Positions 7,431 to 62,079 of a stretch of DNA of 64,000 nucleotides are shown one piece after another. The number at the start of each line of letters is the position of its first letter. Position 1 is the stretch's first letter. The notes under the pieces were generated by a model. The model had not been told where the DNA came from and did not search any database. It saw nothing but the letters and a program-made list of their open reading frames with translations. Origin of the DNA: an uncultured bacterium (GTDB taxonomy: Bacteria > Krumholzibacteriota > Krumholzibacteriia > WVZY01); NCBI GenBank assembly GCA_964464035.1, contig CAYXEN010000006.1:649-64648 (forward strand), written 5' to 3'. The position numbers and the translations under genes are program-made.

Positions 7431-7517
7431 CGCGGAGCGGGTTGAGCTCGATCGATCGAATGATCCCGTGAAAATGCCGCGGTGCGAACGCAAGGACCCG
7501 CGGCGAACGACATAGAG

Positions 7518-13800: not shown

Positions 13801-14105
13801 CTTCCCTCCTTCATTCGTTAGGATGCCCGTCGTGCGGCTGCCGGAGTCGGGTTCTATGGGTTCGGCGGGGTACGTTTGCTTGCGGTCAGTATACACCAAG
13901 AGGTTGAAAGGCATAAACCGTAAATGCCCCGGTGGCGGGCAAGACGAATGTCGTTGAGATGAGAGGCGGGAAACTGCTAGAATTATACATGCATATCCGT
14001 CGAAACTCCATGACGGGAGACCAGGCCGGTTACGGCGCTTCTTTCTCGGCGGATCGGGGCTGATGAGAGCTCTTGCCGAAATAATCCAGCGAAACGGAGT
14101 GGCAC

Positions 14106-16270: not shown

Positions 16271-16383
16271 TTTCCCCAACCAAATAAGCTGTAAGGAGAT
16301 ATGATTCGAATGGACCTGAAGGTCGGTATCTCCTTTTATTTTTGTCCCTAACGAAATGGTATGGGCCCTTGCGAAAAGGGTGA

Positions 16384-20900: not shown

Positions 20901-20944
20901 CGGGCGGCAGGGCGTCGCGATTCAATCCGAGCCAGTCGTCGTGA
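17921..20944 (+). CDS. Receiver-domain and PEP/pyruvate-binding (PPDK_N, ATP-grasp) protein
   Basis: Two REC-like segments; GGSLGGKGRG, LSVRSSSLLEDSQ, FAGVYKT, MAVMVQ, PVEIEFA, LLQMRP. Confidence 0.8.
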   Translation: MGADLKLFDKEEFELGYGSRFQRFQDLMRYRVREILLVSSLYDSFILSEDGRLYEELLTEYIGLNLTHMPGITRVSSGHDAIEMVKDLKRFDLIITTRRLEDMHAVAFAEGLRREKIDIPLVLLTYDNRELQELMEHHDLSRFERVFMWQGDFRILLSIIKYIEDKMNVDYDTHLVGVQSIILIEDNVRFYSSYLPMIYTEVMKHTQRLISEGVNPAHKLLRQRARPKILLSDNYEEAWNYFQRYHDNVLGVISDIQFPRGGVSDPEAGFEFAKSVKAMHPDIPVLLQSRDIKNKERAEATGASFLLKNSPMLLHELQRFMKENFSFGDFIFRLPDGTEVGRAKDLKSLEEQLHRVPVESLIYHGERNHFSNWLKARTEFWLAHKLRPRKVSDYASGEELRNELINSLHDLRVEQHRGIVMDYDPKTMEEATSVVRIGGGSLGGKGRGVAFCSTLINTYRIQNEFPGVKISVPSSIILSTDVFHRFLDENKLHDFAIRTDDDEEITRRFVEAELPHEVVRSLKRFIKSFRFPLSVRSSSLLEDSQFIPFAGVYKTFMIPNNHKDYKVRLEQLLSAVKRVYASTFFKHAKTYFKPTPYRLEEEMMAVMVQKLVGVRHGSRFYPDFSGVARSHNFYPMPPMKAADGIASVALGLGKTVVEGGRTLRFCPRYPKHVHQLSTVEFALGYSQMDFWALELPPEDAAFDPCEEFELAKFGLDVAEKDGVLAALGSTYSRENHAIYDGISRNGVRIVSFAPILKGDLFPLARILELLLALGQKGMNTPVEIEFAVNLTVPPGEPKEFHLLQMRPMVINDEVEKIEIEESLSGEIICRSSCVLGNGVVDDIRDIVMVHPGRFKRSESPIAAKEVGFFNHKLAGEGRPYLLIGVGRWGSADPWLGIPVTWDDIWGARVIVECGMKDLKVTPSQGAHFFQNITAARIGYFTIDSEDKDSYVNWSWLASHGLVEEKKFTCHISLEDPLVVVMNGHDGEGVIYLPAGGRASRFNPSQSS

Positions 20945-41066: not shown

Positions 41067-42461
41067 GTGAAGCCTGGATCCAGGCAGAATGCAGGTTGTG
41101 TCCTGCTCTTCATGTTGATTGCAAGCGTCACCCTCCCGGGGTGCGCCTACTTCAATCTCCTTTACAACGCCAGGCATACCTATGAAAAGGCTTCATCGAT
41201 ACCACTGGCCAGGGACGGCAAGCCTACCCGCCAACAGATCGAACTCTACAACGATGTCATCAAGAAGTGCGAAGCCCTGGTGACGAACTACCCCAAGAGC
41301 AAGTGGGTCGATGACGCGATTCTTCTCATGGGAAAATCCCTCTACATGCAGATGGAATACGACAAGGCCATCGTGAAGTTCAACGAGTTGGAAGAGCTTT
41401 TCCCGGACAGCAAACTCAACGAGGAAGGGCGGATATACCTGGCGCGATCGTATCTTGGAAAGGACAAGGTCGACCAGGCGCTCCTGGTTCTCCGCAAGTT
41501 CATAGGCAAGTACAAAAAGAGCCGCTACATGGACGAAGCCTTGTTCCTGCTCGGGACGAACCAGATGAAAATGGACGATGCGGAAGCCGCCATGGCCACG
41601 CTGGGAACCCTTGCGAAGAAATACCCCCATAGCAAGTACAGGATCGAAGCGGACGTCGAACTGGCGGCGATCTTGATGGAGAAGGGGGATTACGAAGCCA
41701 GCCTGGATATTTACCGCCGTCTAGTGAACGAGAAGCTGGACGTGGAAGTTCTGAACGAGTGCCTGGCCAGGATGGCCGAAGCATATCTCCAAATGAAGGA
41801 CTACACCAACGCCCTCGAGACCGCGAACCGCATCGGTGGGGGGAATCTCAAGCCCGTGGAGAGGGCCGGGAAGATGTTGCTGAGGGCCAAGGCCTACGCC
41901 GGCCTCGATTCCACGGCCAGGGCGATCGACGTGTACAAGACCGTCGCCGCCCGGTTCCCCAAGTCGATGTTCAGCGCCGAGGCTTGTTATCGCCTGGGAA
42001 TGCTCTATCAGGAACGGCTCGACAGTCTAGTGCTGGCGAAGAAACAGTTCGAGAGAGTGCCCAAGCAGTATCCGAAGTCTCCTTTCGCCAAGGAAGCCAT
42101 AAGGAGAAGTTCCAACATCTCCAATCTCCTCAAGTTCAGCCGGAACCTCGGAGCCGGCAGCGAGGAAAAGAAAGCCGACGCCCAATTCAAGCTCGCCGAG
42201 ATCCAGCTCACCCAGTTCGACAACGCCGAAAAAGCGCTCCAGGAATACAAGAAGTTCCTGGAACGATTCGGATCGAGCGAACTCGCTCCCAAGGCTGCTT
42301 ATTCCATCGGGTACATCTACGGTACCGTCCTCGGCGATTCGGCGAAGGCGGCGGAAGCGTTCCAGTATCTCGTCGAACATTATCCCGATTCGCAGCAGGC
42401 TGAGTACGCCAGGCGGTTCTTGAACAAGAAAGGCGTGAAGGATGAAGACGGGGGGAACTGA
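41067..42461 (+). CDS. TPR-repeat lipoprotein
   Basis: Lipobox LPGC followed by AYFNLLYNA; YPKSKWVDDA; multiple TPR repeats. Confidence 0.8.
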   Translation: MKPGSRQNAGCVLLFMLIASVTLPGCAYFNLLYNARHTYEKASSIPLARDGKPTRQQIELYNDVIKKCEALVTNYPKSKWVDDAILLMGKSLYMQMEYDKAIVKFNELEELFPDSKLNEEGRIYLARSYLGKDKVDQALLVLRKFIGKYKKSRYMDEALFLLGTNQMKMDDAEAAMATLGTLAKKYPHSKYRIEADVELAAILMEKGDYEASLDIYRRLVNEKLDVEVLNECLARMAEAYLQMKDYTNALETANRIGGGNLKPVERAGKMLLRAKAYAGLDSTARAIDVYKTVAARFPKSMFSAEACYRLGMLYQERLDSLVLAKKQFERVPKQYPKSPFAKEAIRRSSNISNLLKFSRNLGAGSEEKKADAQFKLAEIQLTQFDNAEKALQEYKKFLERFGSSELAPKAAYSIGYIYGTVLGDSAKAAEAFQYLVEHYPDSQQAEYARRFLNKKGVKDEDGGN

Positions 42462-46209: not shown

Positions 46210-46238
46210 TTGACTCTTAAGGCGATTTGCCTTATTCT
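46210..46238 (+). promoter_or_regulatory. Putative sigma70 promoter of the polysaccharide cluster
   Basis: TTGACT-N17-TATTCT. Confidence 0.65.
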
Positions 46239-46271
46239 ATGATTTCATCCACCCGAACGAAAGGATTGTTC

Positions 46272-47231
46272 ATGCGAGTACTCATCACGGGTATAACAGG
46301 TTTCGTCGGCAGTCACCTGGCCGATTTCCTCCTCGCCAGGGGAGGAGTGGACATATACGGGATTGTGAGGTGGCGGAGCAGGACGGAGAACGTGTCGCAT
46401 CTTCAGGGCAAGGTCAAGTTCATGGAGTGCGACTTGAGGGACGCCGGCTCGACGAGGGACATCATCGAGGAGGTCAGGCCCGAATACATCTTTCATCTCG
46501 CCGCCCAGAGCTTCGTCCCCACGAGCTGGAACGCCCCTTCGGAAAGCCTCGTGACCAACGTCATCGGCCAGCTCAACATCTTCGAGGCGGTGCGCAAGAT
46601 AAAACTGGATTGCCGGATACAGCTCGCCTGTTCCAGCGAGGAATACGGCCTGGTCAAGGAGGACGAGCTGCCCATCACCGAAGACAATCCGCTTCGCCCG
46701 TTGAGCCCCTACGGAGTGAGCAAAGTGGGACAGGACCTTCTCGGCTATCAGTATTTCATGAGCTACAAGATGGACATCGTGAGAACCAGGGGATTCAACC
46801 ACACCGGTCCCCGGAGAGCACCGGTTTTCGTCTGTTCGGACTTCGCAAAGCAGATCGCCGATATAGAGAAAGGGTTGAAGGAGCCGGTGATAAGGGTAGG
46901 CAACCTCGACGCCAAGAGGGATTTCACCGACGTGCGCGACATGGTGAGGGCCTATTTACTTGCCCTGGAGAAGGGCAAAGGCGGCGCCGTCTACAACATA
47001 TGCTCCGGCAGGAGCTGGAGCATGAAGGAAGTCCTCGACATGCTGCTCTCGATGACGGACGCGAAGATCGAGGTGGAGGTCGACAAGGCACGCCTTCGTC
47101 CTTCCGACGTGCCCGTTCTTCTCGGCGACTGTTCCCGTTTCAAGAAAGATACGGGGTGGGAACCCACCATACCCTTCGAACAGACTCTCAAGGACATCAT
47201 CGATTACTGGAGAAACAGGCAGGGAGATTAG
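46272..47231 (+). CDS. GDP-mannose 4,6-dehydratase / GDP-4-keto-6-deoxymannose reductase-like SDR
   Basis: GITGFVG, HLAAQS, SSEEYG, YGVSK, FNHTGP, GNLDAKRDF. Confidence 0.85.
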   Translation: MRVLITGITGFVGSHLADFLLARGGVDIYGIVRWRSRTENVSHLQGKVKFMECDLRDAGSTRDIIEEVRPEYIFHLAAQSFVPTSWNAPSESLVTNVIGQLNIFEAVRKIKLDCRIQLACSSEEYGLVKEDELPITEDNPLRPLSPYGVSKVGQDLLGYQYFMSYKMDIVRTRGFNHTGPRRAPVFVCSDFAKQIADIEKGLKEPVIRVGNLDAKRDFTDVRDMVRAYLLALEKGKGGAVYNICSGRSWSMKEVLDMLLSMTDAKIEVEVDKARLRPSDVPVLLGDCSRFKKDTGWEPTIPFEQTLKDIIDYWRNRQGD

Positions 47232-48200
47232 GTGAAGAGAGTCCTTGTAACCGGGTGTTCGGGCTTCGTCGGTAGAAACCTCGTTCCCATGCTGATGGAT
47301 GAGGGCTTCGAAGTCTGGGGAGTGGATGTCAGGGACTGGGAGGAAGGTTTCCCCGGGACGGGCTTCCGCAAGTTGGACCTGTCCGACCGGCGGGAGACGT
47401 CGAAGACGCTTGCCCGAGTCAAACCCGAGGCGATCATCCATCTCGCCGCGATGTCAAGCGCCGGGCGGTCTTTCGCAGAACCCCTGGACACTATCAGGGT
47501 CAACCTGCTTTCCACCCTTACCATTCTCGAGCACGTGCGGATCGAGGGAGCGGGGACGCGCATCCTGGCCGTCGGGTCGGCGGAGGAATACGGGCCCGTC
47601 GACCGGGAGAAACTGCCCCTTCGCGAGGACATGCCCCCGAACCCGGTGAATCCCTACGCCCTGAGCAAGGTCTTTCAAGAAGATTGCTGCAAGCTCTATT
47701 CCTCCCTCTACGAAGTGGAAGTGGTCATGGCGAGAAGCTTCAACCATACAGGTCCGCACCAGACCGAGACCTTCGTTCTTCCCAGCCTGGCGAAACAGAT
47801 AACCGAGATAAAGCTGGGTATGAGGCCTCCCGAATTGGAGGTAGGCGACCTCCAAGTGAAAAGGGATTTTCTCGACGTCAGGGACGTCGCCGGCGCGTAC
47901 GTCGCTCTCCTTCTTGGCGGCAAGCGGGGCGAGGTGTACAATGTCTGCTCGGGAAAGTCTTGGACGCTCGAAGAGCTCCTGGGCAAGCTGTCCGCTCTGG
48001 CGGGCGTGACCCCTCGGATCACGGTGTCGCAAGCGAGGCTGCGCCCGGTCGACACGCGGGAACTGGTGGGGGACAACTCCAAGATAGTCCGGGATACCGG
48101 GTGGAGACCTCGAATCGGCATGGACGACACGCTCTCTTCCTTGCTGGATTATTGGGAAGAGCGCTTGGGCGGGCATGAGCGCGAAAGGGAAGATGCATGA
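47232..48200 (+). CDS. Second GMD/RMD-like extended SDR
   Basis: GCSGFVG, HLAAMS, SAEEYG, YALSK, FNHTGP, RDFLDVRD. Confidence 0.82.
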   Translation: MKRVLVTGCSGFVGRNLVPMLMDEGFEVWGVDVRDWEEGFPGTGFRKLDLSDRRETSKTLARVKPEAIIHLAAMSSAGRSFAEPLDTIRVNLLSTLTILEHVRIEGAGTRILAVGSAEEYGPVDREKLPLREDMPPNPVNPYALSKVFQEDCCKLYSSLYEVEVVMARSFNHTGPHQTETFVLPSLAKQITEIKLGMRPPELEVGDLQVKRDFLDVRDVAGAYVALLLGGKRGEVYNVCSGKSWTLEELLGKLSALAGVTPRITVSQARLRPVDTRELVGDNSKIVRDTGWRPRIGMDDTLSSLLDYWEERLGGHEREREDA

Positions 48201-48213
48201 CAGGAGGGAGTAG

Positions 48214-49527
48214 ATGATCAGGATATGCATGATCGGGACCGGCTACGTCGGTCTGGTTTCCGGAGCCTGCCTGGCCGATTTCGGGAACAACGTTTATTGC
48301 GTCGACATAGACAAGAAAAGGATCGAAGCTCTCCAGTCATGCGAGATTCCGATCTACGAACCCGGCTTGAAACACATGGTGGAACACAACGCCCAGGCGG
48401 GGCGACTGCACTTCACCACCGATCTGGGGAGCGCGGTCGGGGATTCAGACGTGATCTTCATCGCGGTGGGCACGCCGGCGAACGACGACGGAAGCACGGA
48501 CCTCTCCCAGGTGTTCGGCGCTTCCGAGGAACTGGCCTCTTATATCGACGGCTACAAGGTAATCGTCCAGAAGAGCACGGTTCCGGTGGGCACGACCCGC
48601 AGGATCGCCGACCACATAAAGAGCAAGGCCGCGAGAGGGGCTTCGTTCGACATGGTGGCGAACCCGGAGTTCTTGCGCGAGGGCTCGGCCATCGAGGATT
48701 TCCTCAGGCCCAACCGCGTCGTGATCGGGGTCGAATCCTCTCGTGCGGAAGAGATCATGAAGAAAGTGTACCGGCCGCTCTATCTCATAGAGACGCCCAT
48801 AGTGACCACGAATCTCGAGACGGCCGAGTTGATAAAGTATGCGAGCAACGCCTTCCTCGCGACGAAGATATCGTTCATAAACGAGATGGCGGCGATATGC
48901 GATCTCGTCGGCGCCGACGTGGACGACGTCGCCAAAGGCATGGGGCTCGACGGGAGGATAGGGCCGAAGTTCCTGCACGCGGGATTGGGTTACGGCGGCT
49001 CCTGCCTGCCCAAGGACGTCTCCTCGCTGATTCACGTGGCGCGAGTCCACGGATACGAGCCCGTGATCATAAGGGCGGCTCACCAGGTCAACGCCGGGCT
49101 CGTGGAGAGGGCGTTTGCGAAGCTGGAGGCCGAGCTCGATCGGCTCGAGGGCAAGAGGATCGCGGTCTTGGGCTTGTCCTTCAAGCCCAACACGGACGAT
49201 CTCAGGGAAGCCCCCTCGATAAAAATCATAAGCCGTCTCATAAAAAGTGGAGCGACGGTCAAGGTGTTCGATCCGGTGGCCATGGACAATTTCAGGGAGA
49301 AAGCAGGCCTCGAGGTCGAATACTCCAAGAATCCTTACGACGCCGCCGAGGGGTGTCACGCCCTCATGCTGTTGACGGAATGGAACGAGTTCAGGGAACT
49401 CGACCTGTCGAGATTGAAGAAGCTCCTGGCCCAGCCTGTGTTCATCGACTGCAGGAACGTGTACAAGAAAGAGCTCATGCGGGAGCACGGGTTCCGTTAT
49501 CAGTCTTTCGGCCGTGGCATGAATTGA
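48214..49527 (+). CDS. ugd: UDP-glucose/GDP-mannose 6-dehydrogenase
   Basis: GTGYVGL, PIYEPGL, KSTVPVG, NPEFLREG, KYASN, GYGGSCLPKD, FKPNTDD. Confidence 0.93.
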   Translation: MIRICMIGTGYVGLVSGACLADFGNNVYCVDIDKKRIEALQSCEIPIYEPGLKHMVEHNAQAGRLHFTTDLGSAVGDSDVIFIAVGTPANDDGSTDLSQVFGASEELASYIDGYKVIVQKSTVPVGTTRRIADHIKSKAARGASFDMVANPEFLREGSAIEDFLRPNRVVIGVESSRAEEIMKKVYRPLYLIETPIVTTNLETAELIKYASNAFLATKISFINEMAAICDLVGADVDDVAKGMGLDGRIGPKFLHAGLGYGGSCLPKDVSSLIHVARVHGYEPVIIRAAHQVNAGLVERAFAKLEAELDRLEGKRIAVLGLSFKPNTDDLREAPSIKIISRLIKSGATVKVFDPVAMDNFREKAGLEVEYSKNPYDAAEGCHALMLLTEWNEFRELDLSRLKKLLAQPVFIDCRNVYKKELMREHGFRYQSFGRGMN

Positions 49528-49563
49528 ACGCCCGTGACCCCGGGAGCGCGCAGGGAGAAGCGG

Positions 49564-50601
49564 ATGGATTTCTATGAAAAAATATGCGTGACGGGAGGAG
49601 CCGGTTTCATCGGCTCCAATTTCGTTCATTACATATCGCGCAAGTATCCCCGATGCAGGATCACCGTTCTCGACGCTCTCACGTATGCCGGGAACCTCGA
49701 GAATCTCTCGGGCGTTCTCGATCGGCCTGAAGTCGAGTTCGTGAAAGGCTCGGTCTGCGACGCCGAACTGGTGGGGAAAACGCTCTCGGGATGCGAGGCG
49801 GTTTTCAACTTCGCCGCCGAGACCCACGTGGATCGCTCGATCCAGGAGGCGGGAAGCTTCATAGAGACGGACGTTCTCGGCACCTACAACCTGCTCCGCG
49901 CGGCGCTTGACGCGGGAGTCGAGCGGTTCATCCAGATATCCACCGACGAAGTCTACGGCAGCGCCGACGCCGGGTCTTTCACTGAAGAATCGCCCCTGCG
50001 GCCGGGCAACCCGTATTCGGCGAGCAAGTGCGGCGGGGATCTCATGTGCCTCGCCTTCCACAACACGTACCGGGCTCCCGTCGTCATCACCAGGAGCTCG
50101 AACAATTTCGGACCCTACCAGCACGTCGAGAAATTCATCCCCCTGTTCATAACGAACGCCGTGGAGGGCAAGGATCTTCCCCTCTACGGCGACGGCATGC
50201 ACGAACGCGACTGGATCCACGTCGAGGACAATTGCCGCGCGATCGAGACGGTCGCGTTGCAGGGAGAGGTCGGAACCGTCTACAACGTCGCGTCCGGGTC
50301 GACCAGGCCGAATCTCGAAGTGGCCCGCCTGATTCTTGGACGCGTAGGGGAAACGAAGTCCAAAATAGTCTTCATCGAGGATCGCAAAGGGCACGACAGG
50401 ATCTACTCGATCGATTCTTCGCGCATGAGGAAACTGGGCTGGAAACCGGAGCGCGACTTCGAAGAAGCGCTGCGCTCCACGGTGGATTGGTATCTGGCCA
50501 ACCGCGGGTGGTGGGAGCGGGTGCGGAGCGGCGCCTTCCGCGAGTATTACGAGACTCATTACCGCGACAAGCTCGAGAGAGGCAAGGCCTATGACGCATA
50601 G
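49564..50601 (+). CDS. rfbB: dTDP-glucose 4,6-dehydratase
   Basis: GGAGFIG, LTYAGN, AAETHVDRS, STDEVYG, YSASK, NNFGPYQ, RKGHD. Confidence 0.92.
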   Translation: MDFYEKICVTGGAGFIGSNFVHYISRKYPRCRITVLDALTYAGNLENLSGVLDRPEVEFVKGSVCDAELVGKTLSGCEAVFNFAAETHVDRSIQEAGSFIETDVLGTYNLLRAALDAGVERFIQISTDEVYGSADAGSFTEESPLRPGNPYSASKCGGDLMCLAFHNTYRAPVVITRSSNNFGPYQHVEKFIPLFITNAVEGKDLPLYGDGMHERDWIHVEDNCRAIETVALQGEVGTVYNVASGSTRPNLEVARLILGRVGETKSKIVFIEDRKGHDRIYSIDSSRMRKLGWKPERDFEEALRSTVDWYLANRGWWERVRSGAFREYYETHYRDKLERGKAYDA

Positions 50602-51694
50602 AATAATGGCCGTGGTAGGCGCAAGGCCCAACTTCATGAAGGTGGCGCCCATTTGGAGGGAGCTGGAGCGCAAAGGGGGCTTCACGGGGATCCTCGTTCA
50701 CACCGGGCAGCACTACGACGAGAACATGTCGAAGGTGTTCTTCGACCAGTTGAAACTCCCCAAGCCGGACATATATCTGGGAGTGGGCTCGGGCACGCAC
50801 GGTGCCCAGACGGGCCGGATAATGATCGAGTTCGAAAAAGCCCTCGCGAGGGAGGGAGCGGACCTCGTGCTCGTGGTCGGCGACGTCAACTCGACCATGG
50901 CGTGCAGCCTGGTGGCCGTCAAGATGTCCATACCCGTGGCCCACGTCGAAGCCGGCCTTCGCAGTTTCGACAGGTCGATGCCCGAAGAGATAAACCGCAT
51001 GGTCACGGACATCGTAGCCGACCTCCTCTTTACCACCTGCCGGGACGCGGAGAAGAACCTCCTTCGCGAAAACGTCGACCCCGCCAAGATTCATTTCGTG
51101 GGGAACGTCATGATCGACAGCCTCATGTACTACAGCTCCATGGCCGACAGCTCTCCCATTCTCGATGAACTCTCGCTCACCGGGGGCGAGTTCGGCCTCG
51201 TCACGCTGCATCGGCCCTCCAACGTCGATCACCCCGAAACGTTCGAGCGTATCGTCGAAGCCTTGCTCGCCATCGGCGAGAAGTGCCGGCTGGTTTTCCC
51301 CGTGCACCCGCGAACGAGGAAGATGATGGAAAGGGAAGGAATGAAGATTCCCGAATCGAGGATGAAGATGATCGATCCGGTGGGCTATCTCGATTTCCTC
51401 AAGTTGATGAAACACGCCCGTATCGTCTTGACCGATTCCGGGGGTATACAGGAGGAGACGACGGTTCTCGGCGTGCCGTGCATAACTATTCGGGAGAACA
51501 CGGAACGCCCGATCACGATCGAGGTGGGAACCAACGTGCTCGCGGGTACGGACAAGGAGAGGATCATGGCCGAGGGATTGAAGGCGCTTTCCGGTGATGC
51601 GGGCGATCACGCGGTGCCCGAACTCTGGGACGGCCGGGCGTCGGAGAGGATAGTCGGGGTTCTCGAAAATTATTTCAATGAAACAAAACGGTGA
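50591..51694 (+). CDS. wecB: UDP-N-acetylglucosamine 2-epimerase (non-hydrolysing)
   Basis: GARPNFMK, HTGQHYD, GDVNST, HVEAGLRS, MPEEINR, TLHRPSNVD, TDSGGIQEE. Confidence 0.94.
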   Translation: MTHRIMAVVGARPNFMKVAPIWRELERKGGFTGILVHTGQHYDENMSKVFFDQLKLPKPDIYLGVGSGTHGAQTGRIMIEFEKALAREGADLVLVVGDVNSTMACSLVAVKMSIPVAHVEAGLRSFDRSMPEEINRMVTDIVADLLFTTCRDAEKNLLRENVDPAKIHFVGNVMIDSLMYYSSMADSSPILDELSLTGGEFGLVTLHRPSNVDHPETFERIVEALLAIGEKCRLVFPVHPRTRKMMEREGMKIPESRMKMIDPVGYLDFLKLMKHARIVLTDSGGIQEETTVLGVPCITIRENTERPITIEVGTNVLAGTDKERIMAEGLKALSGDAGDHAVPELWDGRASERIVGVLENYFNETKR

Positions 51695-53180
51695 GTCGTG
51701 GGCCTATCTTGAGACGTCCCTGGAGAAGAGCCTTCTCTGGAGCCTGGCAACGACCGTCCTCCCGGTCACGTCGGCGTTCATCACCTCTTGGATCATAGCG
51801 AGGTTCGCGGGGGCGGAAGCGGTGGGAACCGTTTCCTGGGTGATGGCTTTCGCGACTGTTTGCCTCATCCCGGGCAAGTTCGGCATCGGAATCGCCGCTT
51901 CCCGCATCGCCAGCGAATACGGCGTTTCCTCGCCGGGGATGCTCAGGAGACTTCTCGCCGCCGGAGTGCAACTCCGCTCCGCTTTCACTCTTCCCATAGC
52001 GGTCGCAAGCTTCTTCCTCGCTCGCAGGATAGCGGAGGCGATCGGTGACGGCGGACTCGCCGGGCCCGTGCGCGTCGGAGCACTGGTTATCACCTGTGCA
52101 AGCGCGTACGAGTTTTGCGAGCATTTCCTCGTCGGCTTGAATCGCATCGCCACCGTCACCAGGATCAGGGCCGCCTACCACGTCATGCGCGTTCTGGCGA
52201 CCGCTTTCGTGGTCGCCCTGGGCTTCGGCGCCTCTGCGATCCTGGGAGGGTATTGTTTCTCGTGGCTGGTGGTGATTGCGGTCTATGCTTTTCTGTTCTT
52301 GAAGTTCCTTCCGCCAACGCAAGGGGGGGCCGGCGAAGACATAAGGCGAAGACTGATGAGACTCGGAGTCCCCTTGGCGATAAGCGGCGCCTCCGTCGCT
52401 CTCTATTCCCAGATGGACAAACTCATGCTCGGCTATTTCGGGGATATGGCCGACGTAGGACAGTACACGGTGGCCAGGAACATAACCGAAGTCTCCCTCT
52501 TCCCGGTGTATGCCTTGATCATGGCGCTTCGCCCCGCTTTGGCTTCGCGGTTCGCCGCGGGAAAACTGCAGGAGTGCTCGGAAATGATCCAGAAAACGGC
52601 CTTCATGGCAGTTCTTTCCGGCGTGTTTTTCACCACTCTCTTCCTGATTTTCGGCAAGGAGTTGGTCGTTCTCGTGTTTTCGGACGCTTTCTCGAGAGCG
52701 GGCGCGCTGATGTTGTTGTTCACTTGGGTGATAGCGATGCGTTCCCTGGGCGCCGTCATCCTCCCCTCTCTCGTCGCGGCGGAAAGAACGAGAGCCTACG
52801 CGGGACTCACTCTCGCGTCCGCCGGGCTCAACTTCTTGCTCAATATCATACTTATCCCTCCCTATGGCGTGCGGGGCGCCGTCACGGCGACGCTGGCGTC
52901 GTATGGTTTTCTCTTGCTTTTGGGTTTGTATATCGTCCTCAAGACGTTTAGCATCAAGCTGAATAAAGGCAAGTTGTTCCTGGCGGCGCGGGCTTCCGCC
53001 GCCGGCGCTCTCGCCGGATTCATCCTGCACGTGGCAGCTTCCGATTCTCACCCTCAGGCATCGGTCTTGCTGTGGGTTACGGGGTTGATTCTCCTCTACG
53101 GGATTCTGCTCTGGGCGTTCAGGGTCGTGCGGTCCGGTGACGTGCGCAGAGTGAAAAGCGCTTTAACGATCGACGATTAG
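51678..53180 (+). CDS. Wzx-type polysaccharide flippase
   Basis: 12-14 transmembrane helices; DKLMLGYF...VGQY pattern; cluster context. Confidence 0.82.
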   Translation: MKQNGESWAYLETSLEKSLLWSLATTVLPVTSAFITSWIIARFAGAEAVGTVSWVMAFATVCLIPGKFGIGIAASRIASEYGVSSPGMLRRLLAAGVQLRSAFTLPIAVASFFLARRIAEAIGDGGLAGPVRVGALVITCASAYEFCEHFLVGLNRIATVTRIRAAYHVMRVLATAFVVALGFGASAILGGYCFSWLVVIAVYAFLFLKFLPPTQGGAGEDIRRRLMRLGVPLAISGASVALYSQMDKLMLGYFGDMADVGQYTVARNITEVSLFPVYALIMALRPALASRFAAGKLQECSEMIQKTAFMAVLSGVFFTTLFLIFGKELVVLVFSDAFSRAGALMLLFTWVIAMRSLGAVILPSLVAAERTRAYAGLTLASAGLNFLLNIILIPPYGVRGAVTATLASYGFLLLLGLYIVLKTFSIKLNKGKLFLAARASAAGALAGFILHVAASDSHPQASVLLWVTGLILLYGILLWAFRVVRSGDVRRVKSALTIDD

Positions 53181-53247
53181 GGAGTTTATGTCTTGACACC
53201 CCGGCTTCTTAATGCATATTGTCCTGCTTTAGGAAGGAGAGAATGAG

Positions 53248-54285
53248 TTGGTTCTTACGCACTTGATCATTCCCTTTGTGACGTCATACTTCATCATTCT
53301 CGCGGTGGTGCCTCTCGTGCGCAGGTACGCCTTGAGATGGAAGCTGGGGGACAAGCCCAACGGCAGGAAGATCCACGCCAGCTCCATTCCTCATCTCGGG
53401 GGGATAGGGCTGACTTGCGGCGTGCTGGGGGGGCTGCTCGTTCACGAGATTCTGTATCCCGGTTCGCCGGTGGGCTTGGTGAAGATGTTTCCCGGCATGG
53501 GTGTGATCGTTCTCCTGGGCCTGGTGGACGACATCAAGAATCTCAGGGCATTGCAGAAACTCTCCGTCCAACTCATAGCGGCTCTCGTCCTCGTGCTGTC
53601 GGGCTACCAGCTCCTCGTCGGGGTGGGGGCGGTAGACGGCGTCCCCGTGCTCGCGGCTCTCGTTACGATGTTCTTCATCGTCGGCGTCTCGAATTCGATG
53701 AACCTCATAGACGGCCACGACGGCCTGGCGGCCGGGATCTGTCTCATCGCGGCGTCGGCTTTCTTCCTCATGGCCGCGGGCGAGGGCCAGGGCGCGGTCA
53801 TGGTGACTGCAGTGGTCCTGGCCGGCGCGTGCCTCGCCTTTCTCATCTTCAATTTCCCTCCGGCGAAGATATTCATGGGAGACACGGGCAGCATGTTCCT
53901 GGGCATCTCCCTGGCTGTAGCCGCCTGCATGTTGACGTCGAAGGAAGCTTCCCTGTCGAGGCTGGCCGGAATCGGTCTCGTGCTCGGCCTCCCGCTCATG
54001 GACACCACGCTGGCCGTTACGAGGAGAGTGCTGAGGCGGGTCCCGATTTTCCAGGCTGATTGCCTGCACATTCATCATGTTCTCTCTTCATCCGGTTTCT
54101 CCGATCGCGCCGCCTTGTTCATTCTATACGGCTTGCAGTTCGTTCTGGCCGTTTCCGGCGTGCTCGCAGCGAGGGGATATTCATTGTTCCTCGCCGTGGG
54201 CCTGGTCGTCCTGGGTGTTTCCTTCTCGATCTTCTTGAGACTCATGCTCGCCTCCGCCGAGTCCGCGAAAGTCATCCCCCATTGA
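53248..54285 (+). CDS. MraY/WecA-family undecaprenyl-phosphate GlcNAc-1-phosphate transferase
   Basis: DKPNGRKIH, PHLGG, GLVDD, NSMNLIDGHDGLA, FNFPPAKIFMGDTG, HIHH. Confidence 0.92.
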   Translation: MVLTHLIIPFVTSYFIILAVVPLVRRYALRWKLGDKPNGRKIHASSIPHLGGIGLTCGVLGGLLVHEILYPGSPVGLVKMFPGMGVIVLLGLVDDIKNLRALQKLSVQLIAALVLVLSGYQLLVGVGAVDGVPVLAALVTMFFIVGVSNSMNLIDGHDGLAAGICLIAASAFFLMAAGEGQGAVMVTAVVLAGACLAFLIFNFPPAKIFMGDTGSMFLGISLAVAACMLTSKEASLSRLAGIGLVLGLPLMDTTLAVTRRVLRRVPIFQADCLHIHHVLSSSGFSDRAALFILYGLQFVLAVSGVLAARGYSLFLAVGLVVLGVSFSIFLRLMLASAESAKVIPH

Positions 54286-56611: not shown

Positions 56612-57862
56612 ATGACGTCTTTCTCTGTCTACAAGGGCAATATCAGGTTCTGGCTCAAGGGCTACCTGTTTCTCGGCGTCGTCGTGCTGACCACCATCGC
56701 CCTTCTCTACTCCAACCGGGTCATAGAGCGCATGCAGAAGCAATCCGAAGCGACCACGCGATTGTTCTCGCGTTTCATCGCCGAGATGCTTCTCCAGGTG
56801 GACCAATCGGGCAAGCGGGCCGTCATCCAGGAGGTTCTTGGCGAGATCGATCTGCCGATCATTTTCACGGATTCGGCGGGAAGGCCGATAGCCTGGCACC
56901 ACGTGGGCGTCGCCGAGCCGAGCGACGAGGATTTCGAGCAATTGCTGAGGATCGACCCGGAGGCGCCTCCCCCCGGGAAAATAGCGCGGCTCGTGAAACT
57001 GACGCGCAAGTTCGATTCCAGGAACGATCCCATACCCGTCAAGGTCGTCGGTTCCGATGCCGTGCAGGGTTACGTGCACTTCGGTTCCTCCAGACTTCAA
57101 GGCGAGCTTAGGTTGATGCCGTTGTTGCTCGTCGCCGTTTTCCTGATCTTCATGGCCGCGGGCTTCCAGGGTTTCCGCTACTTGAAGCTGAGCGAGGAAC
57201 GATCCATCTGGGTCGGGATGGCCAAGGAGACGGCCCACCAGCTCGGAACGCCCCTTTCGGCGCTGCTCGGATGGATCGAGATCATCAAGGAAAAGTGCGG
57301 GGCCGGAGACGTGGACAGGATCGCGGGCACGGTCGCGGAGATGGAAGAAGACCTGGCGAGGCTGGGCAAGATAACGGAGCGTTTCAGCAAGATAGGTTCG
57401 CGCCCCGAGCTCGAGCCCATAGCTCTGAAGCCCATTCTCGAGAGAACGGTCGGTTATTTTCACAAACGCCTGCCCAGCCTCAAGGCCGATTCCACCATCC
57501 GGCTCGAGGTGGCGGACGATCTCCGGGTCATGGGGAACGCCGAGCTGCTCGAGTGGGTTTTCGAGAACCTCGTAAAGAACAGCATAGACGCCATCGGCCG
57601 GGAAGGTGGACTGATAGAGATAAGCTCACGCGCCGGGGCGCGCAGGGCGGACGTTCTCGTGCACGACACCGGCAAGGGAATCCCGCCGAAGCACCGCCAG
57701 AGGATATTCTCCCCGGGGTTCACGACGAAGAAGAGGGGATGGGGGCTGGGTCTGGCGTTGACGCGCCGGATCGTCGAGGAGTACCACGGCGGCGAACTGC
57801 GGCTCGTGGAATCACAAGAGGGCGGTGGGACCACTTTCCTGGTGAGATTGCCCTTGGCCTGA
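56612..57862 (+). CDS. Membrane-bound sensor histidine kinase
   Basis: Two transmembrane helices; ETAHQLGTP H-box, NLVKNSIDA, DTGKGI, GFTTK, GWGLGL. Confidence 0.92.
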   Translation: MTSFSVYKGNIRFWLKGYLFLGVVVLTTIALLYSNRVIERMQKQSEATTRLFSRFIAEMLLQVDQSGKRAVIQEVLGEIDLPIIFTDSAGRPIAWHHVGVAEPSDEDFEQLLRIDPEAPPPGKIARLVKLTRKFDSRNDPIPVKVVGSDAVQGYVHFGSSRLQGELRLMPLLLVAVFLIFMAAGFQGFRYLKLSEERSIWVGMAKETAHQLGTPLSALLGWIEIIKEKCGAGDVDRIAGTVAEMEEDLARLGKITERFSKIGSRPELEPIALKPILERTVGYFHKRLPSLKADSTIRLEVADDLRVMGNAELLEWVFENLVKNSIDAIGREGGLIEISSRAGARRADVLVHDTGKGIPPKHRQRIFSPGFTTKKRGWGLGLALTRRIVEEYHGGELRLVESQEGGGTTFLVRLPLA

Positions 57863-58075
57863 CGCCACCCGCCCGGCGGTGAATCCACCTGTGACGCCGA
57901 GCCCTCGCCTCGATCCACCGCGGCCCGTCGGGCCGGACAGAATCCGCTGTAATTATCGTGCTGCACCGTTTATATTTGGAAACGCAGCCACAGGGTGGCG
58001 CCGCTGGCCGGCATTGCATCCGGCTTCAGCGCATTGGGTTACCCGGGCATGAAACGAAACCGGAAGGCTCGAGGC

Positions 58076-59623
58076 ATGCAGCCAAGGATTCTTTGGGTCG
58101 ACGACGAAATAGAACTCCTCAAGTCCCATGTCATCTTCCTGGCCGGCAAGGGATACGACGTGAAGACCGCCTCCAACGGCGAAGACGCCCTTGCCATGGT
58201 CAAGAAGGAAAGATTCGATCTGATTCTCCTCGATGAATCCATGCCGGGAAAGAGCGGCCTCGAAACGCTCGACGAACTCAACGCCATAGAGCCGATGCTT
58301 CCCGTAATAATGATAACGAAGAACGAAGAAGAGAGCCTGATGGAAGACGCCATCGGCAAGAAGATAAGCGACTACCTGCTCAAGCCCGTCAATCCCCTTC
58401 AGATATACTCGGCCTGCAAGCGCCTGCTAGAATCGGACAAGATCCGCGAGCGCAAGTTTTCCGAGGATTATATAAGGGAATTCAATTCATTCGACGACCT
58501 CGTGCACGATGGCACCTGGGAAAGCTGGCTCAAGCTCCACCGCAGGTTCTCGGAGTGGGACCTCGAATTCGATCGCTTCCGCGAAACGGGGCTCGAGACC
58601 ATGCACGACGAACAGAAGAGCACGGCCAACTATCATTTCGGGCGCTTCCTCGAGAAGCAGTACCCCGAGTGGATAAACTCCCGGGAACGGCCTCGCATGA
58701 GCGTGGATGTTTTCGAGCAGTACGTGTTCCCCCACATGAAGTCGCAAGGAAGCGTCTTTTTCATCGTCATCGATTGCGTGCGCCTCGACCAGTGGATGAT
58801 CATAGAAGAACTTCTCAAGGATGAATTCGAGATCGAGAAGAATTACTACCTGTCCATTCTTCCCACGGCCACTCCTTATTCGCGCAACGCGATCTTCAGC
58901 GGGCTCTTTCCGGACGAGATCAGCAGGAAGTATCCCGAGAAGTGGCTGGAAAGAAGCAAGGACGAGATGAGCAAGAACCGATACGAAGAATTCTTCCTCG
59001 CCGAGCAGATCAAGCGGCTCGGGGGGGATGCATCGAGAACCAAGTACTTCAAGGTCTACACGGTCCAGGAGTCCAACGAGCTTCGCAAGAAGGTACCCGC
59101 GCTCGCGTCGCTGCCTTTCGCCGCTTTCGTTTTCAACTTCGTGGACATCCTCGCCCACGGGAGGAACCAATCCGAGATCCTGCAGGAGATAGCGCCCGAC
59201 GAATCGGCGTTCAGGTCCCTCATGCGCTCCTGGTTCAGCCACTCCACGTTGCTCGCCCTTTTGAGGGAGATCGCAAAGAAGAACGCCAGGGTGATAATGA
59301 CCACCGATCACGGCTCGATAATCGGACGCAAATCGTGCCTGGTCCACGGCAGGAGGGATACGTCGACGAATCTCCGCTACAAGTTCGGCGACAACCTCAA
59401 TTGCGACGCCAAGCAGGCCATAATCACGAGGAATCCGGCGGATTTCCGCCTTCCCTCGGAATCGAAGACCAAGACTTACGTTTTCGCCAAGGAATATTAT
59501 TACTTCGTCTACCCGACCAATTTCCGGGACTACGAAAGACAATACCTGGGGAGTTTCCAGCACGGCGGCGCGTCGCTCGAAGAGATGATCCTCCCCTGCC
59601 TCAGCCTGACCCCCAAGACCTGA
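58076..59623 (+). CDS. porX: PorX-family response regulator (REC plus PglZ/alkaline-phosphatase domain)
   Basis: ILWVDDE, LLDESMPG, ITK, KPVNP; IDCVRLDQW, LPTATPYSRN, FVDILAH, TDHG, QHGG. Confidence 0.85.
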   Translation: MQPRILWVDDEIELLKSHVIFLAGKGYDVKTASNGEDALAMVKKERFDLILLDESMPGKSGLETLDELNAIEPMLPVIMITKNEEESLMEDAIGKKISDYLLKPVNPLQIYSACKRLLESDKIRERKFSEDYIREFNSFDDLVHDGTWESWLKLHRRFSEWDLEFDRFRETGLETMHDEQKSTANYHFGRFLEKQYPEWINSRERPRMSVDVFEQYVFPHMKSQGSVFFIVIDCVRLDQWMIIEELLKDEFEIEKNYYLSILPTATPYSRNAIFSGLFPDEISRKYPEKWLERSKDEMSKNRYEEFFLAEQIKRLGGDASRTKYFKVYTVQESNELRKKVPALASLPFAAFVFNFVDILAHGRNQSEILQEIAPDESAFRSLMRSWFSHSTLLALLREIAKKNARVIMTTDHGSIIGRKSCLVHGRRDTSTNLRYKFGDNLNCDAKQAIITRNPADFRLPSESKTKTYVFAKEYYYFVYPTNFRDYERQYLGSFQHGGASLEEMILPCLSLTPKT

Positions 59624-59626
59624 GCC

Positions 59627-60064
59627 ATGGCTTCCTGGAAGGAAAAGCATTACCGGAGTTCGTCCGAGGAAGAAACTTTCTTCCTGGGCAAGGTGCTCGG
59701 CGAGTCCATTTCGCAGGGAAGATGCATATCCCTGGTCGGGCCGCTGGGGGCGGGCAAGACGGTGCTCGCCCGCGGGATCTGCCGCGGCCTCGGCGTGGAG
59801 GAAGAGATCCTGAGTCCGACTTTCGTTCTCTGCGAGGAATTCGCGGGCAAGCTCCCGGTCCTCCACGTCGACCTGTATCGCCTCGAGCACGAGCGAGAGC
59901 TGGAAGCTCTGGGCATATTCGACAGGATAGGCACCGAGTGCGTCGTCATCGTCGAATGGGGCGACCGGTCGGATCGGCTGACGAGCGCGGCGGACATGAT
60001 CGTCGAGCTTCGCATGGGGGGAGAAAGCGGCCGGGACCTCACAGTGAGAGAGAGAATCGAATGA
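59627..60064 (+). CDS. tsaE: tRNA t6A biosynthesis ATPase TsaE
   Basis: GPLGAGKT, SPTF, HVDLYRL, IVEWG. Confidence 0.93.
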   Translation: MASWKEKHYRSSSEEETFFLGKVLGESISQGRCISLVGPLGAGKTVLARGICRGLGVEEEILSPTFVLCEEFAGKLPVLHVDLYRLEHERELEALGIFDRIGTECVVIVEWGDRSDRLTSAADMIVELRMGGESGRDLTVRERIE

Positions 60065-60789
60065 ACGTACTGGCGTTGGATACGTCGCATCGAACGGGAA
60101 GTATCTCGCTTCGCAAGGCGGACGGATCGGTGCTGACCGGGAAGTTCGGCCCCGCCGAGATGCACCTGAAAGAGATAGGGCGGGTGACGCAGGAGATCCT
60201 CGCCGAAGCATCGATGTCGCTTCGCGGGATCGACCTGCTCGCGCTCGTGAAGGGACCGGGCAGCTTCACCGGGCTGAGGATCGGGATGGCCTTCGCCAAG
60301 GGGATTCATGCATCGCTGGGAGTGAGGATCGTGACCATGGATACACTCGAACTTCTGGCGACGCCGCTCTCGGCGCCGGGTGTGGTGGTTGCGCCCATGA
60401 TCGATGCCAAGAGGAACGAGGTATACGCGGCCGCCTTCATCGCTTCCGAGGATGATGGTTCCGGGATGAGGCGTGTGGTGGAGCCGCTGGCCGTGGAGCC
60501 GGGGAAGTTCCTGGACGTCCTCGAGCGCTCGCTTCCCGCGGGAACGCGAAAGACGGTGTTCGTCGGCTCAGGCGCAGCGAAGTACGGGGAGATGCTCGCG
60601 GCCCTGCCGGGCGATCGTTTCGAAACGGCTCCGGAGATCAGTCACGAACCGTCCACCGAGGCGCTTGCCTCCTCCGCCCCGGCTCTCGAGCCGTTGCCGG
60701 ACGAGGAGATCCCCGCCTTGGAGCCTTTCTACATACGCGCGAGCGACGCGGAGCTCAAGAGACTAAGAGAGGTGAGGGCGGATGGCTGA
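60061..60789 (+). CDS. tsaB: tRNA t6A biosynthesis protein TsaB
   Basis: LALDTS, GPGSFTGLRIG, IDAKRNEVY, LEPFYIR; ATGA overlap with tsaE. Confidence 0.92.
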   Translation: MNVLALDTSHRTGSISLRKADGSVLTGKFGPAEMHLKEIGRVTQEILAEASMSLRGIDLLALVKGPGSFTGLRIGMAFAKGIHASLGVRIVTMDTLELLATPLSAPGVVVAPMIDAKRNEVYAAAFIASEDDGSGMRRVVEPLAVEPGKFLDVLERSLPAGTRKTVFVGSGAAKYGEMLAALPGDRFETAPEISHEPSTEALASSAPALEPLPDEEIPALEPFYIRASDAELKRLREVRADG

Positions 60790-61276
60790 GATCACGATCG
60801 ATCACATGCGCGTCGAGCACCTCCCCGAGATAATCGAGATCGAGAAGAAGGTCTTCCCGTCGCCCTGGAGCGAGGACGTATTTCTCCAGGAACTCCACTC
60901 GATAAGCGTGTCCAGGTCCTTCGTCGCGCTCCTGGACGGTCGCGTGGTCGGATACGAGATAGCATGGTTCGTCGAGGAGGAGATCCATCTCGTGAACATA
61001 GCGGTCGCTCCGGACGTGCAGAAGCAGGGGATCGGGTCGAGGCTTCTCGAACACCTCATCGAAACGGGCATGGAGGAGGGAAGGAAGCTCATAACCCTCG
61101 AAGTCAGGGTGAGCAACGTCGGCGCCCAGGCGCTCTACCGTTCTTTCTTTTTCGAGACCGTGGGGATAAGGGAGAGATACTACTCCGACGACAAGGAGGA
61201 CGCCGTTCTGATGGCCCTGGATCTGGAGCAATACCGGATGCAGAGGGGGAAGAAAAAATGGAAGGGACCGGCATGA
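60782..61276 (+). CDS. rimI: RimI-type GNAT N-acetyltransferase
   Basis: FPSPWS, IHLVNIAV, QKQGIG, TLEVRVSN, RERYY, EDAVLM. Confidence 0.9.
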   Translation: MAEITIDHMRVEHLPEIIEIEKKVFPSPWSEDVFLQELHSISVSRSFVALLDGRVVGYEIAWFVEEEIHLVNIAVAPDVQKQGIGSRLLEHLIETGMEEGRKLITLEVRVSNVGAQALYRSFFFETVGIRERYYSDDKEDAVLMALDLEQYRMQRGKKKWKGPA

Positions 61277-62079
61277 CCGGCCCGGGACCGCGGAGCGGAG
61301 GGCTGCCTGGCGTGATGTTGGGAAGCGGGTTGGGTGACGTCTGTGCGGGGTACCCGGTGGAGGAAGCGATCGGATTCGAAGCCATGGACGGAGTGGGCGC
61401 GAGCGACGTGGCCGGGCACGAGGGCGAAGTCAGGAGATGTATCGTCGGCGGCAAACCCTGTGTATTCGTCCTCGGCAGAAGGCATTTCTATGAGGGCGAT
61501 GTCGGCGCGGTAGAAGCATTGATGGAATTTCTCGTGGGATGGGGCGTCGATAGTCTGCTTCTCACTTCCGCCGCGGGAAGCCTGGCGCGGGACCTGAATC
61601 CAGGGGAGCTGATGATGGTGACCGACGTGGTGGATCTCCAGTTTCGCCCGCCGACCGGCGTGAAGCCCCCGGCGGCGTCGCAAGCCCGGGAAGATTCCGT
61701 CCTGAGGGAGAGAGGGACGGCTTCGGCGGGAATGGGGAAGGATCTGGCTCGGCTCGTCGCCGCGGCGGCGAAGAGGGCGGGCGTGGATCTCAAGCGCGGA
61801 GTGATCGGATGCACTTCCGGGCCCGCTTACGAGACCCGGGCCGAGGTGGAATTGCTCTCGCGCCTGGGAATCGACGCGGTGACGATGTCCGCCGCTCCCG
61901 AGATGGATATCGCCCGAAGGCATGGAATCTCGGCCTCTTCGCTTGCTTTGATAACGAATCTTGCAACCGGGATTTCGCCGGTGAGGCTCGATCACGCCGA
62001 AGTGCTGGAAACGGCCTGCGAGGGAGTCGGCGAGATCAGGCGGATCGTGGAGCAACTCGTTGACATCATTTACACTTGA
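61273..62079 (+). CDS. Purine nucleoside phosphorylase (PNP/MTAP family)
   Basis: LGSGLG, GRRHFYEG, TSAAGSL, GPAYET, MSAAPE, ITN. Confidence 0.85.
   Translation: MTGPGPRSGGLPGVMLGSGLGDVCAGYPVEEAIGFEAMDGVGASDVAGHEGEVRRCIVGGKPCVFVLGRRHFYEGDVGAVEALMEFLVGWGVDSLLLTSAAGSLARDLNPGELMMVTDVVDLQFRPPTGVKPPAASQAREDSVLRERGTASAGMGKDLARLVAAAAKRAGVDLKRGVIGCTSGPAYETRAEVELLSRLGIDAVTMSAAPEMDIARRHGISASSLALITNLATGISPVRLDHAEVLETACEGVGEIRRIVEQLVDIIYT

Follow-up and report, generated by a model that had tools for sequence, protein, structure and literature searches.

A probable PorY-PorX two-component system encoded as an adjacent gene pair ahead of a tsaE-tsaB-rimI string in an uncultured bacterium of the Krumholzibacteriota/Latescibacterota type

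We analysed a 64-kb stretch of DNA from an uncultured bacterium (contig CAYXEN010000006.1; the whole stretch is called the window below), in which the gene of a sensor histidine kinase lies directly upstream of the gene of a receiver-PglZ response regulator. Our data indicate, with good though not complete confidence, that these two genes encode the PorY-PorX two-component system as an adjacent pair, and that the pair is followed by a tight tsaE-tsaB-rimI string. Type IX secretion and virulence of Porphyromonas gingivalis are under the control of PorX as their master regulator, which is discussed as a drug target. The host lineage is of the Krumholzibacteriota/Latescibacterota type, in the superphylum of Fibrobacteres, Chlorobi and Bacteroidetes (FCB), and is represented in microbial-mat and hydrothermal-vent metagenomes. 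The components are known, and it is their adjacent arrangement in a new lineage that we did not find described in the literature, where we also found no discussion of PorX or PorY outside Bacteroidota.

The regulator is, judged by sequence, a true and full-length PorX orthologue, in which the phospho-acceptor and the predicted phosphodiesterase site are intact. It matches NF052313, the NCBIfam equivalog model 'T9SS response regulator signal transducer PorX' (T9SS, type IX secretion system), with 655.9 bits against a cutoff of 300 bits, covering model positions 2-513 of 513. It also aligns over its full length with five solved PorX sequences (including PDB 8TED and 7PV7; F. johnsoniae and P. 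gingivalis) with E-values of ~1e-128. We took the sequence of the P. gingivalis PorX from the supplement of PMC7323717 and included it in an alignment of 82 PorX sequences, where its identity to the window protein is ~40% over the full length. The domain order is a CheY-like receiver with the acceptor D53, a helical linker and a PglZ/alkaline-phosphatase-type phosphodiesterase domain. The receiver residues D9, D10, D53 (in LLDESMPG), T81 and K103 align with D14, D15, D58, T86 and K108 of P. gingivalis, and the PglZ residues D233 (VID), T266 (PTAT) and D357/H361 (D..AH) align with D239, T272 and D361/H365. At each of these nine P. gingivalis positions, no more than one of the 82 aligned sequences departs from the residue. 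The TDHG and HGG motifs are present as well, and the dimer-interface residues Ser385 and Ser389 (P. gingivalis numbering) are conserved. The original prediction, which was made from the window sequence without database searches, had described the acceptor Asp and the PglZ motifs as present, and the residue alignment agrees with it. Thr272 and the Zn ligands D361/H365 of PorX are essential, and the phosphodiesterase activity and the D58-dependent dimerisation have been described (PMC9757075). The open reading frame (ORF) of porX is open from a GTG at 57995, and the homologues and the family model begin at the ATG at 58076 (MQPRILWVDDE), with GGAAGG/GAGG located just 5' of this ATG.

The kinase is, by its sequence relationships, no new candidate sensor: from end to end, and in the sensor domain too, it is an orthologue of PorY. 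We collected ten Bacteroidota PorY proteins from the supplement of PMC7323717, including the experimentally studied ones of P. gingivalis W83 and ATCC 33277. In BLASTP searches the window kinase shows 30-40% identity to them over the full length with E-values of 1e-62 to 1e-74, and the alignments span both transmembrane (TM) segments and the periplasmic domain, e.g. residues 12-414 against 14-389 of the W83 protein AAQ65302 (E 1e-63). The best match among solved kinase structures, ZraS, reaches only 82 bits and covers the catalytic core. A hidden Markov model (HMM) built from the ten Bacteroidota PorY sequences gives the window kinase 302.9 bits. With this model, all kinases encoded immediately 5' of PorX genes reach 231-350 bits and the remaining kinases of that DNA 58-79 bits, i.e. 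the split is cleanly bimodal. The original prediction took the kinase for an 'ETAHQLGTP-type' sensor distinct from PorY; this does not stand, as the H-box of the P. gingivalis PorY, SKETAHQLGTPISSL, matches this very label and the motifs RFxK(I/V)GS and TK.RGWGLGL are common to the two proteins too.

Pfam recognises in the kinase an HATPase_c domain (78 bits) and a weak HisKA domain (21.6 bits) and nothing else. We predicted its 3D structure with AlphaFold2 (AF2; predicted local distance difference test score, pLDDT, 77.6). The layout in this model is TM1 at ~13-35, a periplasmic alpha/beta sensor at ~36-168 (~130 aa), TM2 at ~168-192, a DHp domain and HATPase_c. TM2 passes into the DHp helix without a break, and the cytoplasmic part has neither a HAMP nor a PAS domain. 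The phospho-acceptor H209 of the DHp domain lies in KETAHQLGTPLSALLGW, which contains the KETAHQLGTP H-box. The periplasmic region of the P. gingivalis PorY extends from A35 to R149 (PMC4800418, PMC12152298). Since the kinase is a PorY orthologue, its adjacency to the regulator nominates no new sensor, and gives genomic-context support to the published PorY-PorX pairing, for which binding in surface plasmon resonance (SPR) and a genetic cascade are known from P. gingivalis (PMC4800418).

The adjacency of the kinase and the regulator is conserved in the relatives of the window, as the original prediction had expected of a cognate pair. We surveyed 80 genome loci with the PorX proteins most similar to that of the window and mapped the window proteins onto each of them. 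In 61 of the 75 informative loci, porY directly precedes porX on the same strand, with a median gap of 49 nt. By the labels of the genomes, the pair is adjacent in 32/32 loci of Latescibacterota, 10/11 of Gemmatimonadota, 4/4 of Krumholzibacteriota, 2/2 of Eisenbacteria and 11/12 of unlabelled metagenome-assembled genomes (MAGs). Dozens of independent genomes have this gene order, which goes beyond chance, and the wider neighbourhood differs between the groups. No PorY was found upstream of porX in any of the 12 loci labelled as, or clustering with, Calditrichota, Ignavibacteria, Chloroherpeton and Bacteroidota. In a second survey we scanned with the P. gingivalis PorX as the seed, took the best 80 matches and looked for PorY within 4 kb of porX; it was found in 0 of 71 Bacteroidales loci, which agrees with the description of porY as an 'orphan' in the literature. 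In a neighbour-joining (NJ) tree of PorX, 13 loci lacking PorY and three whose upstream flank is too short form one clade with no PorY-linked locus inside. From this distance tree we derive, as the simplest reading, that porY and porX were paired ancestrally and came apart later, on the branch towards Calditrichota and Bacteroidota sensu lato.

Some of the surveyed loci deserve a comment of their own. L017 (Gemmatimonadetes J002) is the sole exception in its phylum, with a PorX that has neither an upstream PorY nor a downstream tsaE; a second kinase and a receiver fragment are encoded ~5 kb downstream of its porX (12601-13522). The Latescibacterota chromosome CP070677 (L013) has a run of 100 N at 5899-5998, exactly at the 5' end of porX, and is not scorable for PorY, while a 64%-identical PorY (P0030), presumably from the same chromosome, is on record. 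Three loci labelled Chitinivibrionia (L002), Planctomycetota (L041) and Deltaproteobacteria (L063) are probably mislabelled MAGs, their PorX proteins clustering with Krumholzibacteriota-type, Latescibacterota/Gemmatimonadota-type and Calditrichota sequences, respectively. A flagellin gene lies ~3 kb 5' of porY-porX in Gemmatimonadota-type loci (L019:2232-3059 (+) and 13 others), the organisms of which appear to be flagellated.

In 71 PorY sequences drawn from every sampled phylum, the stretch W200-W221, which surrounds the phospho-histidine, hardly varies (mean top-residue frequency 0.75), and the periplasmic sensor varies most (0.39). Within PorX it is the receiver domain that is best conserved, with a mean top-residue frequency of 0.75. 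The DHp helix-1 region of histidine kinases generally carries the residues for partner specificity. A conserved DHp helix-1 and a conserved PorX receiver, combined with a variable sensor, would fit one retained partnership with lineage-specific signals. By itself this pattern holds no co-variation signal, because both sides of the interface barely vary.

In the mechanism that we propose, PorY would sense a periplasmic signal via its TM-flanked sensor domain, as suggested by homology, and would autophosphorylate at H209, from where the phosphoryl group would move to D53 of PorX. Phospho-PorX would then dimerise, by which its Zn-dependent PglZ phosphodiesterase would be turned on, with linear and cyclic oligonucleotides as the likely substrates; its output might also, or instead, run through protein and DNA contacts. 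That phosphate is transferred, what PorY senses and what the pathway controls, a possible T9SS target included, are inferred.

Table 1. Genes and spacer of the porY-porX locus and its downstream string in the window
Feature	Positions	Strand	Remarks
porY, sensor histidine kinase, 416 aa	56612-57862	+	start 19 nt past the serS stop
porY-porX spacer, 213 nt	57863-58075	+	holds a promoter-like element
porX, receiver-PglZ response regulator, 515 aa	58076-59623	+	NF052313 match
tsaE (YjeE/YdiB/UbK family P-loop ATPase), 145 aa	59627-60064	+	PF02367, 112 bits
tsaB	60061-60789	+	TIGR03725, 116.9 bits (cutoff 69.3)
rimI (ribosomal protein S18-alanine N-acetyltransferase)	60782-61276	+	TIGR01575, 134.8 bits (cutoff 86.4)
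PNP-family gene	61273-62079 (alternative start 61258)	+	PF01048, 111 bits

The genes downstream of porX are closely packed. The stop codon of porX is separated from tsaE by 3 nt, tsaE and tsaB overlap by 4 nt, tsaB and rimI overlap by 8 nt, and the start of the PNP-family gene overlaps the end of rimI. This short gap, with the overlapping genes behind it, points to co-transcription and translational coupling. The distances given in the original prediction, a two-TM kinase about 210 bp 5' of the regulator and tsaE 3 nt behind it, are confirmed by the ORF coordinates (Table 1).

The spacer between porY and porX carries a promoter-like element at ~57940-57979, which consists of AATCCGCTGT, ~21 nt and then TTTATATTTG. 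The conserved form of the second box is TTTATA(T/A)TT, and in the window this box fits the Bacteroidota -7 motif TAnnTTTG. The element is kept in the spacer of five of the six aligned close relatives (L001, L003, L004, L007 and L029; L002 is without it). Neither a terminator-like hairpin nor an Rfam match was found in the spacer. We infer from the sequence a predicted internal promoter that would serve porX-tsaE-tsaB-rimI; the one metatranscriptome from the same sample gave no coverage. The Bacteroidota -7 motif, TANNTTTG, has five sites in the window, three of them within the 9% of the DNA that is non-coding. These three, at 16337, 37838 and 57971 (+), lie 65-202 nt 5' of gdhA, the pyr operon and porX, a placement that hints at a Bacteroidota-type promoter architecture in a non-Bacteroidota FCB lineage.

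Across all the FCB phyla sampled, no other gene keeps its place beside porX as persistently as tsaE. It lies immediately 3' of porX in 73 of the 77 informative loci of the first survey and in 51 of the 73 Bacteroidales loci, and the latter count bears out the porX-tsaE linkage in Bacteroidota that the original prediction had named. The window TsaE scores 88.8 bits against TIGR00150 (cutoff 60.1), and its translation has all the expected motifs, i.e. Walker A (GPLGAGKT), SPT, HVDLYR (HxDxYR) and EW (VEW). In the Latescibacterota and Gemmatimonadota loci tsaE stays beside porX where tsaB and rimI no longer adjoin; tsaB follows tsaE in part of the surveyed loci. Of the suggested linkage of the regulator with tsaE, tsaB and rimI, then, the tsaE part is broadly kept, and the tsaB and rimI part is lost in these two groups. 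In Latescibacterota/Gemmatimonadota the place that tsaB has after tsaE in the window is taken by a conserved protein of ~250 aa (L018:8230-8982 (+); likewise placed in 40 loci), for which neither Pfam nor NCBIfam gave a match. We found no functional theme among the cluster neighbours in the Latescibacterota/Gemmatimonadota loci (CvpA, NFACT/RqcH-like, ClpX-like, MutS2, flagellin and FadL/PorV-like outer-membrane protein). The tsaE-tsaB-rimI string is a common bacterial housekeeping string, and its presence here therefore needs no special explanation. The PNP-family gene scores below the cutoffs of the NCBIfam PNP models (163 vs 218 bits), and it follows rimI in the close relatives of the window only (L001, L003, L005, L008-L013, L016 and L029). 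The link to purine salvage which had been proposed through this gene thus gains no comparative support.

According to the Pfam and NCBIfam scans, housekeeping genes make up the remainder of the window, e.g. hemC, serS, accD, the genes for pyrimidine synthesis and a cluster for polysaccharides. The polysaccharide cluster (46227-54285, +) lies directly 5' of hemC-serS-porY and encodes two NDP-sugar dehydratase/epimerases, UDP-glucose 6-dehydrogenase, dTDP-glucose 4,6-dehydratase, wecB, a MATE/flippase-like protein and a WecA-like GT4 protein. The block GT4-hemC-serS-porY-porX-tsaE-tsaB-rimI-PNP-accD is kept whole in the closest relatives (L001, L003, L005, L008-L012, L016 and L029). Elsewhere in the window, the 1007-aa protein encoded at 17921-20944 (+) combines a weak N-terminal receiver domain with a PPDK_N/PEP-utilising ATP-binding domain, an unusual fusion of a receiver with an output domain. 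At 6669-8705 (+) an AIR-carboxylase-like gene stands beside a Ni-insertion gene of the LarC family, an arrangement resembling larB-larC of the lactate-racemase cofactor biosynthesis.

The original prediction had also called for a search for T9SS genes in the genome. We used the P. gingivalis PorK, PorM, PorN, PorP, PorT, PorV, PorQ, PorU and PorW proteins from a paper supplement as phmmer queries against the window and 80 related loci, and scanned all window ORFs with Pfam and NCBIfam. These scans found no T9SS genes in the window, and a regular expression for the 'YPNPFN'-type C-terminal sorting motif had no match in the window or the related loci. The phmmer matches are limited to an FGE-sulfatase domain in a peptidase fusion and a marginal PorV-like match. 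The fusion (11101-13914, -), a protein of 937 aa, joins PD40 beta-propeller repeats and an S9 prolyl-oligopeptidase domain to an FGE-sulfatase domain at the C-terminus; this last domain gave the only match to the P. gingivalis PorK (E 2e-14), and the protein is not a PorK orthologue. The TPR protein encoded at 41067-42461 (+) was likewise rejected as a PorW/SprE, with 126 bits below the cutoff of 250; it is better explained as a YbgF(CpoB)-like protein, the gene of which is inserted between pyrC and the pyrK/pyrD genes. The sole T9SS-flavoured neighbour, in Gemmatimonadota/Latescibacterota loci, is a FadL-like outer-membrane protein encoded two genes 3' of tsaE (L019:8840-10156 (+) and 15 other loci; L045:8751-9611), which has sub-threshold N-terminal matches to PorV/PorQ and BamG (50.7 bits, cutoff 90). 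A GC-biased DNA pattern of the GldM/PorM N-terminal motif gave at least 120 matches in other genomes, and those listed are all from Bacteroidota. According to published work, some further FCB phyla, Gemmatimonadetes among them, may have a T9SS (PMC11285876). We found no paper containing both Latescibacter* and T9SS.

Several points weigh against reading the window as a functional PorY-PorX pair. The assignment of PorX and PorY in this lineage rests on homology and gene context. The spacer between the two genes is long in the window and its nearest relatives (~105-255 nt) and holds the conserved promoter-like element, and porY and porX may be transcribed separately in this clade. In P. gingivalis the phenotypes of the porX and porY mutants have little in common, and PorX can be phosphorylated by acetyl phosphate (PMC9757075). 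A search confined to the 64-kb window and to 80 related loci, the remaining genome not being searched, gave no T9SS core genes and no cargo with the T9SS-type C-terminal domain (CTD). Each survey consists of the 80 best matches of its scan, with MAG taxon labels of which some are probably wrong, and the NJ tree has no support values and leaves the long-branched P. gingivalis PorX and L017 outside the clade lacking PorY. The adjacency could in principle be functionally meaningless, with PorX phosphorylated by acetyl phosphate or another kinase as proposed for P. gingivalis; the mutant phenotypes and the conserved element between the two genes would suit this. We consider it improbable, since the orthologous pair stands adjacent and on the same strand, at the short median gap given above, in 61 genomes of at least four labelled phyla with differing wider neighbourhoods, since the PorY DHp helix-1 and the PorX receiver are highly conserved across these phyla, and since the SPR binding and the genetic cascade of P. 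gingivalis connect the two proteins. The original prediction proposed a previously unrecognised, non-PorY kinase as the sensor of PorX, in a cluster that couples phosphorylation-gated oligonucleotide degradation to the N6-threonylcarbamoyladenosine (t6A) modification of tRNA or to purine salvage. The kinase does adjoin the regulator and the five genes from porX to the PNP-family gene are tightly packed, but the full-length orthology to PorY largely refutes the 'new kinase' part. As to the metabolic coupling, PNP is confined to the closest relatives and tsaB and rimI are away in Latescibacterota and Gemmatimonadota, where the unrelated 250-aa protein is found instead; we judge this proposal very improbable as a whole. 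To the idea that the PglZ protein belongs to a phage-defence system like BREX (bacteriophage exclusion) we give practically no credence. The PglZ domain does match the PADLOC models (~65-67 bits) and NF033449 BREX_PglZ_3 (96.6 bits), but the latter score is far under its cutoff of 250 and compares with 656 bits for the PorX model. A PADLOC scan of six cluster proteins found no other defence protein and no BREX partners, and the surrounding genes are housekeeping genes. We rejected the defence reading on this sub-cutoff score and the lack of partner genes.

A further reading concerns the role of TsaE. The P. gingivalis UbK1, a kinase of the TsaE/YdiB family, was reported in 2026 to phosphorylate Tyr79 of PorX in vitro (PMC13241743). 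PorX was found as a UbK1 substrate via the porX-tsaE neighbourhood in 81 P. gingivalis strains, and a PorX Y79 variant had no secretion (T9SS) phenotype (PMC13241743). Since UbK1 phosphorylates PorX, the coupling of tsaE to porX may be one of protein phosphorylation and not of tRNA modification, and by analogy a direct interaction of a TsaE/UbK protein with PorX is plausible in this lineage. TsaE might accordingly be a UbK-type protein kinase and a second, PorY-independent input into PorX, with the three genes porY-porX-tsaE as the conserved unit. The persistence of tsaE where tsaB and rimI have moved away and the complete UbK/TsaE motifs speak for it. The position of Tyr79 is however Met74 in the window PorX, and the six commonest residues in this column of the 82 aligned sequences are N, H, G, D, S and A, with Tyr not among them. 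The mapped UbK1 site is thus, as far as the alignment tells, a peculiarity of Porphyromonas, while the porX-tsaE linkage itself appears ancient and broad, and any conserved relationship of TsaE and PorX must rest on something else. The silent Y79 variant, the position of the window tsaE with tsaB and rimI as expected of a housekeeping t6A gene, and the possibility that a shared promoter alone preserves the linkage count against the kinase role as well. On balance we hold it to be possible, if doubtful. A wider form of this idea takes porY-porX-tsaE for a signalling module of three genes that is ancestral to the FCB superphylum, with TsaE/UbK as a genuine partner of PorX (as a second input or a t6A-linked output). 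The output in lineages such as this one would be broader than or different from the T9SS, e.g. oligonucleotide or nanoRNA turnover, and the orphan state in Porphyromonas would be derived and partly decoupled. We put this forward tentatively and regard it as rather unlikely; if true, it could explain the weak overlap of the porX and porY mutant phenotypes in Porphyromonas.

The adjacency of porY and porX in ~60 genomes labelled as at least four sister phyla, and its absence from one PorX clade (Calditrichota, Ignavibacteria, Chloroherpeton and Bacteroidota loci from the environment), gives independent evolutionary support to a PorY-PorX pairing that has been disputed. The survey also yields many linked kinase-regulator pairs, on which the P. 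gingivalis interface could be tested for co-evolution. The neighbourhood of porX with tsaE/ubK1, being superphylum-wide, both broadens and qualifies the link between PorX and UbK1.

Compared with known systems, the window PorX shares its fold family, the PglZ/alkaline-phosphatase superfamily, with the PglZ proteins of BREX, and differs from these in having an N-terminal receiver and in standing without BREX partner genes. With the PorX proteins of P. gingivalis (PGN_1019/PG0928) and F. johnsoniae it has the domain order, the acceptor Asp, the T272-type Thr and the Zn ligands in common. It differs from that of P. gingivalis in belonging to a non-Bacteroidota FCB lineage, in being encoded immediately 3' of porY and in having Met at the Tyr79 position. 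The P. gingivalis UbK1/TsaE locus shows the same order of porX and then tsaE and the same Walker A, SPT, HxDxYR and EW motifs; unlike there, the window tsaE additionally precedes tsaB and rimI, the classic t6A string, and the tyrosine targeted by UbK1 is absent from PorX. The window kinase and the P. gingivalis PorY (PGN_2001/PG0052) have in common the two TM segments round a periplasmic sensor, the lack of HAMP and the H-box KETAHQLGTP(L/I)S. The ligand of the P. gingivalis PorY is the C-terminal domain of PorA, which cannot be assumed for the window PorY; the sensor is the least conserved part of PorY. In P. gingivalis porY is an 'orphan' gene apart from porX, whereas in the window it is the immediate upstream neighbour of porX.

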